Shown here: positions 2,885-27,858 of the stretch, piece after piece
Layout: each line of letters opens with the position of its first letter
Numbering within the stretch: position 1 is the first letter of the stretch
Source: a virus
Length of the DNA stretch: 39,875 nt
Direction: 5' to 3' (one strand)
Virus genome (UHGV): UHGV-0140636
Made by a program: the position numbers and the translations under genes
Notes under the pieces: model-generated
What the model was told of the DNA's origin: nothing
Database searches by the model: none
The model's input: only the letters and a program-made list of their open reading frames with translations

Positions 2885-2952
2885 GTCAATATTTCCTAAT
2901 CCGATTTGTTGATGCCGAAGCCCTGACTGTTACAGCAGTTGGGGCTTCAACT

Positions 2953-22844: not shown

Positions 22845-23131
22845 GGCTTAATCTTTCCCTCCTTCAGCAGTATCGCCTGCGTCCTGATCACGCCTTCGAG
22901 GTGGTAAAGTCTGGCGTCTTTGTTGTCGAGATTATGGGTGCGTCGGTCGATTTCATCGTGACACGCGCTACAAGCCCATGCGCCGATCAGGTCGTCAGGC
23001 TTCATCCCCGTTCCGCAAATTCCAGCCATCCGGTAATGTGCCAGAACTGTAGTTTCAGGATTGCCATTGCATACGCCGTAAATACGTACCTGGCATTCTC
23101 TGCCGCGCGCTTCTTTGCGTAGATTAGCCAT
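22841..23131 (-). CDS. YbcO-like Cys-rich protein (DUF1364-like)
   Basis: 96 aa with CxxC pairs (CQVRIYGVC, CSACHDE); position upstream of rusA as in DLP12. Confidence 0.55.
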   Translation of the reverse strand: MANLRKEARGRECQVRIYGVCNGNPETTVLAHYRMAGICGTGMKPDDLIGAWACSACHDEIDRRTHNLDNKDARLYHLEGVIRTQAILLKEGKIKP

Positions 23132-23853
23132 TAAGCAGCCTCCCCTGTTACTTTCAGCATTCCGTTATCGAGCAGCTTTCTGGTCAGCCACTGTTGACCA
23201 CGCCCGGTGATTTTTGTGGTGAACGATATCTGTATTCCGTGATTTGTGTTGACCGCTGTTTCTTTCACTGTGAAATAGCCGCGATCCATATATTCCTGCA
23301 TTGGCACATTGCGCCGGGAACCTGAAGCAATAAGGATTTTGTGATCGCGCATCCACGCAAACAGTTTGTTTGGACCAATACCGACAACCTTTGCAAAGTT
23401 TCCAATCAAAATTCCGCTGGCTTCGCCAACTCGATCGGCAAACTCAACTTTAGGTGCGGCAATTGCGAGCTGGTTTTCCAGTTGCATTTTCTGCTCAGCA
23501 AGATCAGCAGCAAGGCGCAACGCTTCTGGTAGCGTTTTGGGGATATTAACCGCAGTTTCTTCAAGCTCTCGCCAACGGTCAACAAGACGAGCGGTGAATT
23601 CCGGCGACAACTGGGCTACAACGACAATACTGTCTCGCTTTCCTTGTTCGCCTTCGAATACATACACACAAAAACTTTGATTTAAGCCTAACCCATTGAT
23701 TCTTCCACAATCCTCAATTTGAGGAAGCCGGATAACACCATTTTTAGCCAGCGTTTCGATGGTACGTTTCACATTGTCATGACGCTTACCCACCAACTCA
23801 GCGATTTCAATGCTTGTCATTTTGATGGCATTGCCATTTATTAACTCATTCAT
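23131..23853 (-). CDS. Antirepressor-type protein, Rha-like N-terminus plus KilA-C/ANT-like C-terminus
   Basis: MTSIEIAELVGKRHDNVKRTIETL Rha-type motif; C-terminal region typical of antirepressors. Confidence 0.7.
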   Translation of the reverse strand: MNELINGNAIKMTSIEIAELVGKRHDNVKRTIETLAKNGVIRLPQIEDCGRINGLGLNQSFCVYVFEGEQGKRDSIVVVAQLSPEFTARLVDRWRELEETAVNIPKTLPEALRLAADLAEQKMQLENQLAIAAPKVEFADRVGEASGILIGNFAKVVGIGPNKLFAWMRDHKILIASGSRRNVPMQEYMDRGYFTVKETAVNTNHGIQISFTTKITGRGQQWLTRKLLDNGMLKVTGEAA

Positions 23854-24016
23854 CGCCTTCTTCCTCGTACATTGAGCTATTCGGATCGCTCATCAGTTCT
23901 GCGCAGCAATCGGAGCACACGTGAACTTCCAGCACATGCAGCTTCTGACCGCAGTTAGCGCACGTTAAAGCTCGCTCGACACTTCCTTGTTCGTAACTTC
24001 GATTTTGGTCAATCAC
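23846..24016 (-). CDS. ninF: NinF-like zinc-ribbon protein
   Basis: GTG start overlapping ninE stop (GTGA); [38 protein letters not shown] resembles lambda NinF; not in ORF track because under 60 aa. Confidence 0.6.
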
Positions 24017-24195
24017 CTTGTTTTCCTCGCACGTTCTCTAAGCCACCGGATATCCCACAGGTGAGCCGTGTAGTTGAAGGTTTTTACGTCAGATTCTTTT
24101 GGGATTGGCTTGCGTTTATTTCTGGAGCGTTTCGTTGGAAGGTATTTGCAGTTTTCGCAGATGATGTCGGTGAAACTTCGTCGCTGTCGTCTCAT
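24013..24195 (-). CDS. ninE: NinE
   Basis: [52 protein letters not shown] matches lambda NinE. Confidence 0.85.
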
Positions 24196-24602
24196 TCGTA
24201 CCTCCTGTCGGTAAATCTGACACCCTGACCAATAGCCCAGGCTGTTGTGTACTCGATCAGACTTGCCATGCGCTTCACGCTCATCTGCGCGCTGCTTTCG
24301 CGAATGTTGACGTATTCACCTTCAAGGCCGGGCAAAACATCAGCTTCCTGCTTTGTTGCCACTGCATGACCGCTGATCAACAAAACCTTCCATTGTTCTG
24401 GTTTTAACCATTTATCGCGCCACTGAACTTGCCTAGCGATATCTGCGACCATCGCGTGAAATTTTGCGTTCTGGTCAAGGTTGCGCTTGTAGTCAGTAAT
24501 GCGGATGGTGACTGGCTTGTCTTTATCGAGTGGTGTTGCGAGGATGGCATTTATTGCAGCTTGCTGTTGTTGCTTAGTTCGGAGGAAGATTGTTTGCTTC
24601 AT
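24192..24602 (-). CDS. ninB: NinB recombination protein
   Basis: 136 aa, similarity to lambda NinB N-terminal region. Confidence 0.8.
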
Positions 24603-24930
24603 CGAAATTCTTCTCTTTAATTCCAGCGGCTCTGATAGCTTTCATTACTGCAATTACCGTTTTGTCTCTCCCATCCTCATAACCCATCGCATAAGCACCT
24701 TCTTCACCATCTTTCCAAAAGTCGTCATTCGATTCTGGCCAGTCGATATCCAGTTCAATAGCTGCTCGCGATGCCTGCCATAAAGCCCACCACTCATTTA
24801 AGGAGTGACGAATATCCATGCTTGAAAATGCAAAGTACCTATCACCATTTCTTGCCTCGGTTATCATCTCGAATGGTAATCTCAATTTTTTGGCAACGTA
24901 TTCCTCAAACTGCTTTCTTGATTCGTCCAT
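24574..24930 (-). CDS. Hypothetical protein
   Basis: 118 aa ORF; overlaps ninB start by 29 nt. Confidence 0.5.
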   Translation of the reverse strand: MDESRKQFEEYVAKKLRLPFEMITEARNGDRYFAFSSMDIRHSLNEWWALWQASRAAIELDIDWPESNDDFWKDGEEGAYAMGYEDGRDKTVIAVMKAIRAAGIKEKNFDEANNLPPN

Positions 24931-24944
24931 ATCAATCCCCGTTA

Positions 24945-25142
24945 TTACAGGTTAATTTTCACCCAACCCTTCCCACGCACATTTGCAACAAGCCCTTTCT
25001 TTCTCAGGTATTGCATACGGCGATCGATGGTTTCGATATACATTCCATTGCTCCGCCATTTAAGCCAGATATCAAAAACAGGTGTTGGTCTTTCACTCAG
25101 CATTGAAAGAATGTTTTGATCTAATTTTTCGTACTTGCTCAC
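24945..25142 (-). CDS. Hypothetical small protein
   Basis: 65 aa ORF, start-stop overlap with upstream ORF. Confidence 0.5.
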   Translation of the reverse strand: MSKYEKLDQNILSMLSERPTPVFDIWLKWRSNGMYIETIDRRMQYLRKKGLVANVRGKGWVKINL

Positions 25143-25465
25143 AAATACCCTCTCTCACTTAATCGCGCCCACGCTTCGTTAAACTCTTCTCGGGTTGCGC
25201 CGGATTTTCTTTCTTCAAACATCATGCATTCGCTGATGTCTCCCCATGACTTTGGTCGCTTTTCAGCGAACAGATCATCCCATTCGAATACCCAGCGGCC
25301 TGATTTTCGGTAGTGGTAAATGGTCAGCCATGTTGTGCTGTTCGCTGGATACCCATAGAGAACTTCGACTTTTTGATCACGGTCTTTATGCTTTTTCAGC
25401 AGGATAAAGCCAGCAACCAGCGAAGCTCCGGAAAGAATGATGATTGGAATTTGCCAGTCAGCCAC
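25139..25465 (-). CDS. Hypothetical membrane-anchored protein
   Basis: 108 aa; N-terminal hydrophobic segment IPIIILSGASLVAGFILL. Confidence 0.5.
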   Translation of the reverse strand: MADWQIPIIILSGASLVAGFILLKKHKDRDQKVEVLYGYPANSTTWLTIYHYRKSGRWVFEWDDLFAEKRPKSWGDISECMMFEERKSGATREEFNEAWARLSERGYL

Positions 25466-25537
25466 ACTTCCCTCTCCCCCAAATAAAAAGGCCTGCGATT
25501 ACCAGCAGGCCTGTTATTAGCTCAGTGATGTAGATGG

Positions 25538-26914
25538 TCATACGTCCGCCCCTTGTGCATATCGTCTGCCACGCGCAGCAGGTGCATTTGATGCTGTGCA
25601 AATCTGTCTGGCTTCATCCTGGTCACATGCAACAAAGTGTCCGTTACAGAACCGCTGGTAAACCGTACCAAGTGAGCCAAAACGGTTTTTCGTCACGATG
25701 ATTTCAGCAAATGGTGCGGCGCTACTGTTCTCGTCATATACCGCTTCCCGATAGAGCATGATGATTGAGTCTGCGTCCTGTTCAATGCTTCCTGAATCAC
25801 GCAAATCTGCGTTTGTCGGGCGTTTGTTTGGTCGCTTCTCAACATCGCGCGAAAGCTGACTCAGGGAGATAACAGGCGTTTTCAGGTCTTTCGCCATCGC
25901 CTTCAGGCTTCCGGAGATGTGAGCAATTGCGAGGTCGTTGCGATCTGCTTTCGGCTTCTCAATCAGGCCAAGATAATCCGCCATGATGAGTGACAGGTTT
26001 GGATTTTCCTGTTTGTGCCGTTCTGCGATTGAGCGAATTTCTTCGACCGATAACCGCGAGGCATCGACTACCCATACATCCAAATCTGCAAGCTGACTCA
26101 TGCCGTTAGCAACACGCGCCCAGCCTTCGTCATCCATCGATGCAGGATTTCGCAGTACGCTAACCGACATCCTCCCGGCGTTGGCAATGCTTCGCTCTGC
26201 AATCTGCAATGCGCTCATTTCCATCGAGAAAATCAACACTCCGCGCCGGACGTCAGAACCAGGAATAACGCGGCTTGCAACGCCTTCGGCAATCTTCAGC
26301 GCCAGTTCGGTTTTCCCCATACCAGGACGAGCAGCGATTATCACCAGGTCTTCCGCGTTCATCCCTCCGGTGATGGCATCAAGTTCTTCGATTCCGGTCT
26401 TCAGGGTATCTGACTCTTCTCCGTTCCTCAGACGCCTGTCAAGCGTGTCAGTGTAGTCAGTAATGATTTCCCCTAACCGTACAGGTTTTACTTCGTCACG
26501 GGGCTTTCTGATGGCTGAAAGACGCTTTACAAGCTCATCCATCGCCTGACTCGATGCGTCGATTGTCCCGCTCTGAATTGGTTCACGCATTTCATCCATG
26601 ATTTCCAGCACCAGACGGCGGTGATAGTTATCCGCGACCATTCCGGCATATCCTTTCAGGTTTGCGGCACTCGGGCAGTTTTTGCTGGTCATCAGGATTG
26701 ACGTGAAATGCTCCTCTCCGCACGCCTCGGCAACCATCAGCGCGTCGATTAGGTTTCTGTTTCTCGCCTGCTTGCGGATAACCTCGAAGGCTTTCCGGTA
26801 GAGCGGAATTGAAAACGCTTCCGGCTCCAGTGTTGCCAGAACGTCGCTGGCGGTTGGAGTTAATCCACCAATCAGCAGGCCACCGATAACGCTCGCTTCG
26901 ATATCCTGTCTCAT
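25538..26914 (-). CDS. gp12: Replicative DNA helicase (DnaB-like, P22 gp12 type)
   Basis: 458 aa; Walker A GMGKT, DnaB-like motifs. Confidence 0.9.
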
Positions 26915-27858
26915 GCAATCCCCCTGTCTGCAAACTTCCCTTCCCGAACTCCCGTTAACGAATCTTCCCTCAGCAGGTAATCAAAATCTGCCGTCCATCC
27001 CGTGTCGTTGTCTCCGAAGTAAAACGGCTTGGCCTGATGTACAAACGCCCTGACATACGCTCTGAAACCGTCCACGTTTGGCGTTTTCAGTTGCGGGATG
27101 ATTTTCTTCAGGCGGCGTTTGCGTTTCTCGTTGACTGCAACAGCGTGTGGCAGTCTGTCACCGACTTCGGTGTTGTAGGCGTTCAGGAAGGATTCGTAGT
27201 CGATTCGTTCTGCCTTGCGACGTTCAGGTTTAACCTGCCCATCGCCTCCCCCATTGGGGGGTAGGGGGGTATTATTTATATTCTTGTTAATACCTTCTTG
27301 TTCATGATGTGCGGTTTTTTGTGCGGCATCATGTGCGCTTTCATGTGCGGCATGTGCGCTGAAAGCCGCGCCATTACTGTCTTCGTCATGTGCGGCATCA
27401 TGTGCGGTTGTTTGTGCGGCATCATGTGCGGGTGAATTGTCCATTTTTTGAGCGTATTCATGGTAATTTGTGATGGTGATCACACGACCTTTTTGCTTCT
27501 CTCCATCAATGGAGATCATCCCCTCTTTCACAAAAACCTGAAGCATCCGCTCAACCTGATCACGGCTTGCCGGCTTGCCATGCCTGTCGCATAACTGAAG
27601 ACCTAAATCAGCTGCTGTCACAACCAGTTGACCGGGTTGCAGATGCCATTCATGACCTTTGAAATTCGCTTTGTATGGCTTTCTGGCGGCATTCAGGAGA
27701 AGGTTTTCCCACAGGGTGCGAAGATAAACATCTTTCGCCCATGACTGTTTCAGAATGCTCCGGTACAACGGAATGTAACCAGTTTTCTGGTTCTCCATCC
27801 TGTTGCTCCTGCGCTCGTGTGCGGCGCTGAAATCGTAGATTTTTGCTGTATTGCTCAT
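26911..27858 (-). CDS. gp18: Replication initiator (O-like, P22 gp18 type) containing ori
   Basis: N-terminus [10 protein letters not shown] like lambda O; internal iteron-encoded AHDAAQ repeats. Confidence 0.8.
27300..27432. repeat. Origin iterons (CATCATGTGCGG-type repeats, 5 or more copies) flanked by AT-rich tracts
   Basis: Directly visible repeats inside initiator gene. Confidence 0.75.

Follow-up and report, generated by a model that had tools for sequence, protein, structure and literature searches.

The three open reading frames between the helicase gene and ninB in virus genome UHGV-0140636 (39,875 nt, referred to in full as the window) are likely non-essential, delayed-early accessory genes that are unrelated to one another and can be exchanged independently; they lie in the nin region of an E. 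coli prophage that is P22/Sf6-like. All three lie on the minus strand, at the positions and with the sizes given in an earlier note made from the sequence: ORF1 (25139..25465; 108 amino acids [aa], GTG start, N-terminal transmembrane [TM] helix), the equivalent of Sf6 gp46; ORF2 (24945..25142; 65 aa, GTG start, basic), the equivalent of Sf6 gp47; and ORF3 (24574..24930; 118 aa, ATG start, acidic), a Phage_phiTE_015 family (PF26207) protein by its homologues. The tight coupling described in that note was also borne out. The GTG of ORF1 is directly preceded on the minus strand by GGAGAGGGAAGT, the GTG of ORF2 shares GTGA with the ORF1 stop, the ATG of ORF3 lies 14 nt past the ORF2 stop, and the end of ORF3 lies on the first 29 nt of ninB (24574..24602), an overlap of exactly 29 nt because ninB spans 24192..24602 on the same strand and ORF3 begins at coordinate 24574. 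The ninB gene, which encodes the Orf recombination mediator, is the downstream limit of a variable slot, and the RefSeq annotation of the E. coli G749 prophage (98.3% identical) supports its identification.

Sequence conservation indicates that ORF1, ORF2, and ORF3 are genes rather than chance frames. Homologues of each reach down to 34 to 50% identity while retaining invariant motifs, and 49 distinct alleles of ORF1 carry 36 synonymous versus 27 non-synonymous variant codons; conservation together with this synonymous excess rules out spurious ORFs. No RNA gene turned up here in Rfam and tRNA scans. All three proteins have full-length PHROG matches (ORF1, phrog_5903, E = 2.6e-75; ORF2, phrog_7185, 3.5e-34; ORF3, phrog_343, 5.4e-31), and all three PHROGs are labeled “unknown function.” Searches of ORF1 to ORF3 against Pfam and NCBIfam returned nothing at E < 0.01, including the classical Nin families (Pfam NinB, NinE, NinF, NinG, and NinX) and Ren (NCBIfam “protein ren”). 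The same Pfam scan recovered NinB (E = 4.6e-53, profile positions 1 to 131 of 131), NinE (1.9e-42), and NinF (7.7e-14) in adjoining genes. The earlier statement that the ORFs match no recognizable Nin protein therefore stands as far as Ren and the classical Nin families go, but the proteins are not new: ORF1 and ORF2 correspond to Sf6 gp46 and gp47 (about 98% identity), ORF3 belongs with PF26207, and judged by sequence all three are already catalogued, as early accessory genes labeled hypothetical, in P22/Sf6-like phages and Shiga-toxin phages. A literature search on PF26207, phiTE_015, L0091, and Sf6 gp46/gp47 found nothing relevant, and one paper reporting an accessory-gene screen does not mention these genes.

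Immediately upstream lies a hydrophobic 27-aa NinA-like ORF (25458..25541, minus strand), absent from the earlier list, which joins the helicase stop through an ATGA overlap and shares 8 nt with the start of ORF1. It matches phrog_5907 (E = 7.6e-19), equals Sf6 gp45 (annotated as “similar to phage 21 NinA” and as boundary sequence bsq6), and is found upstream of ORF1 in 80 of 80 loci. Its variant codons divide into 15 synonymous and 19 non-synonymous, so the frame may be translated or may merely be conserved as terminator and junction sequence. Within it, the terminator scan and RNA folding identify a tR2-type intrinsic terminator (25489..25512, minus strand) with an 8-bp GC-rich stem, an 8-nt loop, and a U-rich tail (−16.8 kcal/mol, z = −2.2). 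The matching Sf6 sequence is annotated as terminator tR2, and this hairpin upstream of ORF1 was the only convincing terminator in the scan.

Genes of the nin region belong to the PR operon, where they lie close together and are non-essential (PMC8022706, PMC10695390), and the layout of ORF1 to ORF3, coupled and downstream of tR2, is that of a normal non-essential nin region. A crude consensus scan, which a weak or non-canonical promoter working in the lysogen could escape, found no sigma-70-like promoter on either strand between 24000 and 26000 (shuffled sequences average 2.1), and no terminator was found after ORF3. Since neither a promoter-like site nor a downstream terminator is present by these scans, expression is probably by read-through from PR during lytic growth. 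Antitermination would let RNA polymerase cross the tR2 hairpin, so that ORF1 to ORF3 would be transcribed within the early-right (PR) operon, and translation would pass by coupling down the chain from the helicase through the 27-aa ORF, ORF1, ORF2, and ORF3 to ninB. Given this proposed transcription and coupling, the products would act in lytic growth or induction and not from a repressed prophage.

The earlier note took this slot for a moron site. An autonomous cassette expressed from the prophage and benefiting the lysogen, with ORF1 acting for example in superinfection exclusion or abortive infection, would agree with the high variability of the slot among lambdoid prophages and with a GC content of 41 to 45% over the ORFs (41 to 46% across 24500-25400), lower than in the helicase and initiator genes on one flank (50 to 55%) and in ninB/ninE on the other (about 49 to 50%). 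A dip of this kind is consistent with DNA gained recently by horizontal transfer, as morons would be. The TM anchor of ORF1 points the same way, as such anchors are present in many Sie-type exclusion proteins. We nevertheless regard a true moron as unlikely: the ORFs follow immediately upon tR2, the scans found neither a promoter-like site of their own nor a terminator past ORF3, start/stop overlaps tie them to operon genes on both sides, and ORF1 and ORF2 have relatives in phages that are strictly virulent and so lack a lysogen in need of protection. Screening against PADLOC-DB 2.0 matched no defense model to any of the three; ORF2 alone gave an insignificant CARF-associated match (E = 0.035). 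What survives of the moron proposal is thus the variable slot and the GC dip; the three families are separable and coupled within the operon.

Comparative genomics of the interval, which the earlier note had suggested, revealed a mosaic slot but not a single unit. Among 80 ORF1-bearing viral contigs, whose loci are 95 to 99% identical, ORF1 and ninB lie between about 0 and 1,300 bp apart, and the interval holds at least eight alternative small-gene cassettes. ORF2 directly follows ORF1 in 49 of these loci and is missing from 31, an ORF3-family gene is present in about 40 to 48, and ORF1 abuts ninB in 9. The three families travel independently. E. coli G749 carries the complete 1.3-kb arrangement at 98.3% identity, and 13 of 5,426 E. 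coli genomes cover at least 80% of it. A conserved ORF1-ORF2 pair was considered and rejected, as the genes that follow one distant homologue of ORF1 show no relationship to ORF2; a 64-aa gene preceding another ORF1 homologue likewise proved to encode a two-TM protein, not ORF2.

These distributions bear directly on the idea that ORF1 to ORF3, perhaps together with the 27-aa peptide, work as a single functional module. Such a module might combine a sensor in the membrane, a regulator that binds DNA, and an acidic antagonist, or it might resemble a toxin-antitoxin set. Tight translational coupling, the adjacency of ORF1 and ORF2 in Sf6 and in the 49 loci above, and the presence, in two unrelated contexts, of a phiTE_015-family gene beside or close to a relative of ORF1 would all be expected of such a module. 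Each family, however, is found without the others: ORF1 stands alone before ninB or lacks ORF2 in the loci counted above, ORF2 occurs without ORF1 in an Enterobacter prophage and in virulent siphophages, and ORF1 relatives located after PolA have unrelated neighbors. Moreover, nin regions are tightly coupled in general (PMC8022706), and because the 80 loci are so closely related, their linkage largely reflects recent common ancestry. A single module is accordingly very unlikely, and we favor three separately exchanged genes.

ORF1 has a strongly hydrophobic N terminus (Kyte-Doolittle 19-residue maximum of 2.15 at residues 5 to 23), and its AlphaFold2 model (pLDDT 85.7) places a helix at residues 5 to 27, corroborating the TM anchor noted earlier. 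After this helix come KKHKDRDQK, a four-stranded sheet, and a C-terminal helix. The single TM helix, with positive charges on its C-terminal side, would tether the remainder of the protein to the cytoplasmic face of the inner membrane as a compact beta-sheet-plus-helix domain with no recognizable fold. The family carries the invariant motif YGYP...TWLTIYHxR...FEWDDLF..GRP. A PDB sequence-profile search returned nothing, ORF1 has no solved-structure relative, and a BFVD search recovered uncharacterized ORF1 relatives only, including one from Goslar (E = 2.5e-7); others are found in IME207 and a 112-kb coliphage. The soluble domain is common to temperate lambdoid phages, PolA-encoding phages, Shuimuvirus siphophages, the 112-kb coliphage, and jumbo phage Goslar. 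It would be membrane-tethered in most family members, but the TM helix is missing from the relatives P0032, P0051, and IME207, and tethering is therefore not core to the family.

Because these relatives lie among the early genes of temperate as well as virulent phages, often near replication or recombination genes, ORF1 is most likely a binding factor directed at the host or at replication. Our preferred explanation can be narrowed to make it a replication accessory factor at the membrane, with the replisome or a replication protein of the host as its target. ORF1 directly follows the DnaB helicase gene at this locus, and its relatives lie downstream of DNA polymerase A (PolA) in two phage lineages, adjoin primase and helicase genes in IME207, and occupy the replication-to-ninB slot of divergent prophages behind three different replication modules (Toprim/AAA_25, DnaB, or lambda-P). 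Against this, the lambdoid position is simply the default variable slot, the family gene lies near PhuZ in Goslar and among anonymous ORFs in the 112-kb coliphage, ORF1 has no similarity to any replication protein in sequence or fold, and phages can form plaques without the nin region (PMC10695390); a replication factor in this narrow sense seems quite improbable. The replication-gene neighborhood of the family is also partly a by-product of where variable early genes gather. A further, speculative reading, to which we assign a low probability, is that the soluble domain is an undescribed fold used broadly as an early effector against a conserved enterobacterial target, for instance a defense associated with the membrane, or a factor in replication or division. 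If this were true, the ORF1 family would represent a new class of host-takeover or anti-defense protein.

ORF2 (pI 10.2, net charge +6.5) is probably a minimal winged-helix DNA binder, as suggested by weak but recurrent profile matches. At E < 0.1, the 28 members of the ORF2 family match 13 Pfam families, 9 of which are helix-turn-helix (HTH) or winged-helix families (Crp_2, Rrf2, LexA, MarR_2, ArsR, Trans_reg_C, Rv2175c, HVO_0163, and Cmi2). The best single matches were all subthreshold (HTH_Crp_2, E = 0.016; Rrf2, 0.025; PDB 1sfx, 0.085; 1ylf, 0.55), and the PDB profile matches to 1ylf (an Rrf2 protein) and 1sfx (AF2008) span the would-be recognition helix and wing. Two family members also match phrog_2440, “transcriptional regulator.” PDB profile searches with single distant relatives gave noise only, and hhalign put the probability of a match between the family and the 68-aa wHTH protein that neighbors it in phage NX263 at 0.35%. 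The conserved motif of the family is DRR(M/L)QxL(R/K)KKGL...GxGW, and ORF2 would contact DNA through the helix DRRMQYLRKKG and a GKGW wing. The ORF2 homologues without ORF1 are those of the Enterobacter prophage and the virulent siphophages, in the latter beside ParB-like and MarR-like genes.

ORF3 has a pI of 4.67, with a net charge of −8 in its C-terminal half. Its assignment to PF26207 is made through homologues: precomputed matches place this family on all 120 ORF3 homologues among the matches listed, including P0079 (98% identity, 100% coverage). The family core reads ESRxQFExW ... WxxWQASRAAIE ... IRAAG(I/V)K. The protein is 98.3% identical to an ORF of Stx1a phage 11KH263 and 94 to 96% identical to ORFs of SH2026Stx1 and mEp213. 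It is also chimeric: residues 1 to 60 are nearly identical to the same-slot protein, called “phiTE_015 family protein” by PGAP, of E. coli 09A19CPO009, residues 48 to 118 are of the Stx-phage type, and the DNA junction lies near 24758. Fold searches gave no trustworthy match. We picture ORF3 as a predicted N-terminal helical module followed by a poorly ordered, acidic, aromatic-rich middle, and it most likely binds a protein partner.

For interpretation of this genome, the interval has little consequence: it displays normal lambdoid nin-region mosaicism and is unlike a defense or virulence cassette. What it still offers is a lead to three unstudied families of compact proteins found phage-wide, of which that of ORF1 spans temperate and virulent phages without a relative of solved structure. 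Because the genes sit in tractable phages (Sf6, mEp213, and Stx phages), knockouts and partner screens should be easy.

ORF1 to ORF3 share the neighborhood of lambda Ren, NinA to NinH, and HK97-type morons, between the replication genes and ninB and downstream of tR2. They have no sequence similarity to lambda Ren or the Pfam Nin families, and the phages with ren (H11 and H41) carry these cassettes in addition to it; classical morons differ in having their own promoter and terminator, which were not found for ORF1 to ORF3. With wHTH domains of the MarR, Rrf2, ArsR, and DeoR types, ORF2 appears to share the order of helix, helix, recognition helix (DRRLQxLRKKGL), and G-x-G-W hairpin, along with a basic pI and repeated subthreshold matches over the same C-terminal stretch; it differs in matching none at a curated threshold and, at 65 aa, in having neither a dimerization nor a ligand domain. 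Within the Phage_phiTE_015 family, ORF3 is set apart by an acidic DIDWPESNDDFWKDGEEGAYAMGYEDGRDK variant and by a C-terminal extension that runs into ninB. The closest system is the block of genes 45 to 48 of Sf6 (NC_005344), annotated as hypothetical proteins with no assigned function. Sf6 has an additional gene 49 before ninB, and its DNA identity to the window ends near 24758, within ORF3, whose C-terminal half is of the Stx-phage type instead. Over window positions 24758-25541, Sf6 DNA is 98.9% identical, gp46 and gp47 are 98.1% and 98.5% identical to ORF1 and ORF2, respectively, and the order and coupling of the genes are shared, from the helicase through the 27-aa NinA-like ORF with tR2 to gp46, gp47, and gp48.

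ORF1, ORF2, and ORF3, the three small genes between the replicative helicase and ninB (24574-25465), are genes by three lines of evidence. Each has a full-length PHROG match (ORF1, phrog_5903, 2.6e-75; ORF2, phrog_7185, 3.5e-34; ORF3, phrog_343, 5.4e-31). Their homologues extend down to 34 to 50% identity with sharply conserved motifs and number 58 clusters for ORF1, 20 clusters plus 40 representatives at 50% identity for ORF2 (exhaustive search), and 217 clusters for ORF3. Among 49 distinct ORF1 alleles out of 80 viral contigs, third codon positions hold most changes, with 36 synonymous versus 27 non-synonymous variant codons. By both the ORF table and the sequence, every gene from ORF1 to ninB lies on the minus strand, and the coordinates and lengths in the earlier note match exactly. 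The DnaB-type replicative helicase upstream (25538..26914, minus strand) is annotated in the 98.3%-identical Escherichia coli G749 prophage. ORF1 (25139..25465; 108 aa) starts with GTG, immediately preceded by GGAGAGGGAAGT; ORF2 (24945..25142; 65 aa) also starts with GTG, in a GTGA overlap with the ORF1 stop; and ORF3 (24574..24930; 118 aa) begins with ATG 14 nt beyond the ORF2 stop. Because ninB (24192..24602) matches the entire Pfam NinB model (4.6e-53), the 29-nt overlap of ORF3 with its start, as previously proposed, is real. A Pfam scan places ninE and ninF downstream of ninB on the same strand.

The interval had been described as a common moron site, morons being autonomously transcribed accessory cassettes of a prophage, and the part of this claim that holds is the variable slot. 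GC content falls to 0.41 to 0.46 over the ORFs, compared to 0.50 to 0.55 in the replication genes. Across 80 ORF1-bearing IMG/VR contigs, the distance from ORF1 to ninB ranges from ∼0 to 1300 bp, and the space is occupied by ORF2 (48 to 49 loci), phiTE_015-family genes (about 40 to 48), a 78-aa protein (22 loci), a 63-aa membrane protein (5 loci), and others. The same variable pattern recurs in divergent prophages with Toprim/AAA_25, DnaB, or lambda-P replication modules. Both the GC drop and the variable content are consistent with genes acquired horizontally at a variable site. Autonomy, judged by anatomy, is the part that fails: a sigma-70 consensus scan of both strands of 24000-26000 detected no promoter-like site (2.1 expected by chance), there is no terminator 3′ of ORF3, and start/stop overlaps chain the ORFs to their neighbors directly downstream of the terminator tR2. 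Nin-region genes are closely packed, non-essential, delayed-early members of the operon of PR, the early-right promoter, with ATGA junctions (PMC8022706, PMC10695390). The anatomy of ORF1 to ORF3 is this standard non-essential nin-region architecture and not that of an autonomous unit. Strictly virulent phages also carry relatives of ORF1 and ORF2; from this and the operon anatomy, we infer that the three genes would be expressed in lytic growth by read-through of tR2 and not from the prophage. A KilAC-domain antirepressor-like gene (23131-23853, minus strand, 240 aa; annotation taken from the near-identical G749 prophage) lies between ninF and a DUF1364 gene, so that this operon holds a further accessory insertion within the nin region. 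Farther upstream, the replication initiator gene (26911-27858, minus strand) contains tandem 12/24-nt repeats at 27303-27431 (TCATGTGCGGCA-like, ∼5.5 copies of the 24-nt unit) that encode a His/Ala/Asp-rich stretch and look like origin iterons embedded in an O-like gene.

The earlier note overlooked a fourth reading frame, a hydrophobic 27-aa ORF (25458..25541, minus strand; phrog_5907, 7.6e-19) that shares an ATGA with the helicase stop and whose last 8 nt overlap the start of ORF1. Its counterpart is Sf6 gene 45, annotated as "similar to phage 21 NinA." Within it lies a tR2-type terminator (25489..25512, minus strand), a GC-rich hairpin with a U tail (−16.8 kcal/mol); the equivalent Sf6 sequence is annotated as tR2. 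The 27-aa ORF precedes ORF1 in all 80 close loci but is absent 5′ of the distant ORF1 homologues whose gene neighborhoods we compared; the linkage looks like shared junction sequence and not partnership. With 15 synonymous versus 19 non-synonymous variant codons, it may be a translated micro-protein or just conserved terminator/junction sequence. At the opposite edge of the slot, unrelated cassette ORFs at the ninB junction in loci L011 to L090 share their last residues (e.g., ...SHEETNV or ...ESK). A common junction sequence that overlaps the ninB start seems to supply these 3′ ends and would be a mosaic "boundary sequence."

ORF1, ORF2, and ORF3 are three separate genes and not a unit, since their families occur without one another and with unrelated neighbors. 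Of 80 closely related loci, only 49 have ORF2 after ORF1 and 9 have ORF1 directly abutting ninB; the neighbors of distant ORF1 homologues are unrelated. Virulent siphophages of Salmonella and Klebsiella carry ORF2 homologues without ORF1, next to ParB-like and MarR-like genes, and one further ORF1-free homologue, in an Enterobacter prophage (L008), follows a tandem winged-helix protein and is directly coupled to it. The 31 of 80 ORF1 loci missing ORF2 and these ORF1-free homologues speak against a single three-gene unit. Right after DnaB in other lambdoid prophages (L008, 3555-4004; L093, 2770-3228) is a 149- to 152-aa protein with two winged-helix domains (MarR_2, 7.8e-8; HTH_IclR, 8.4e-8).

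For ORF1, AlphaFold2 (28-sequence alignment, pLDDT 85.7) predicts a hydrophobic helix at residues 5-27, in line with the proposed N-terminal transmembrane anchor, then four strands (32-39, 46-52, 57-63, 81-84) and a C-terminal helix (92-104). KKHKDRDQK directly follows the hydrophobic helix, and by the positive-inside rule the C-terminal domain should therefore face the cytoplasm. Invariant residues are Y37, G38, Y39, P40, W46, L47, T48, Y50, H51, R53, F60, E61, D63, D64, L65, F66, and R70. A tblastn search matched 93 phage records, among them that of a 112-kb coliphage and those of many Shuimuvirus-like Salmonella phages. Some relatives lack the transmembrane helix, and the family is present in virulent or non-lambdoid phages too. 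Its genes lie directly after DNA polymerase A (L003, 4001-4312; the downstream position recurs elsewhere), beside primase and helicase genes in IME207 (L100, 2462-2725), directly after a phiTE_015-family gene near rdgC (L101, 3501-3836), and adjoining the PhuZ tubulin in Goslar (gp236; L010, 2453-2773). Such repeated placement within early blocks, frequently next to genes for replication or recombination, is suggestive of an early-acting factor.

ORF2 is small and basic (65 aa, pI 10.2, net charge +6.5), with the family consensus LDxxIL...P..F..I...R.iDRRLQaLRKKGLI...GkGWvK. Its weak database matches, none significant singly, are all to winged-helix families and cover one and the same C-terminal stretch (Pfam HTH_Crp_2 and Rrf2; NCBIfam IscR and Csa3-HTH; PDB 1ylf, an Rrf2 protein, and 1sfx, AF2008, E = 0.085). 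Across 28 family members, 13 Pfam families are touched at E < 0.1, nine of them HTH or wHTH families, and two members touch phrog_2440, "transcriptional regulator." ORF2 probably has a winged-helix DNA-binding role. ORF3 is acidic (pI 4.67; C-terminal half net charge −8), and its family has a core of ESRxQFExW, WxxWQASRAAIE, and IRAAG(I/V)K, in that order, as well as an insert that varies and a middle part that is acidic and rich in aromatic residues.

The window represents a P22/Sf6/HK620-like E. coli prophage, matched best among phages by Gally, HZ41, Kapi1, and CUS-3. It encodes a P22-type sar antisense RNA (2886-2952, plus strand; Rfam RF00262, 65.6 bits, E = 1.5e-11), so a P22-type immI (ant) region is present. 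As previously noted, the three ORFs match no Nin protein: Pfam and NCBIfam scans returned no match to Ren, Nin families, or NCBIfam models, and PADLOC defense models gave none. They are nevertheless not unknown genes, having been catalogued before as hypothetical (Sf6 gp45-48, PF26207, and three PHROGs). All ORF3 homologues among the matches listed carry PF26207, named Phage_phiTE_015 in the neighborhood tables; ORF3 was empty in local Pfam scans because the Pfam copy scanned lacks this model. The interval 24574-25541 holds nothing surprising to a lambdoid-phage specialist, and what remains of mild interest is solely the ORF1 family, common to temperate and virulent enterobacterial phages, with a confident model and no solved-structure relative. 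The exact three-gene combination is uncommon in E. coli: at least 80% of a 1.3-kb query was covered in 13 of 5426 complete genomes and some part in 2067. Sf6 gp46 and gp47 are each ∼98% identical to ORF1 and ORF2, respectively, and Sf6 DNA is 98.9% identical to the window from 24758 to 25541. This high identity ends at 24758, inside ORF3, at the WQASRAAIE motif conserved in the phiTE_015 family; ORF3 is thus a recombinant with N- and C-terminal modules of different type. In this chimera, residues 1-60 are nearly identical to a "phiTE_015 family protein" (PGAP name) that occupies the corresponding slot in E. coli 09A19CPO009, and residues 48-118 are the version carried by Stx phages, including VT2-Sakai, BP-4795, and EDL933-Stx. 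An identical chimera is present in Stx1a phages and mEp213, with full-length counterparts at 98.3% in Stx1a phage 11KH263, 94% in SH2026Stx1, and 96.5% in mEp213.
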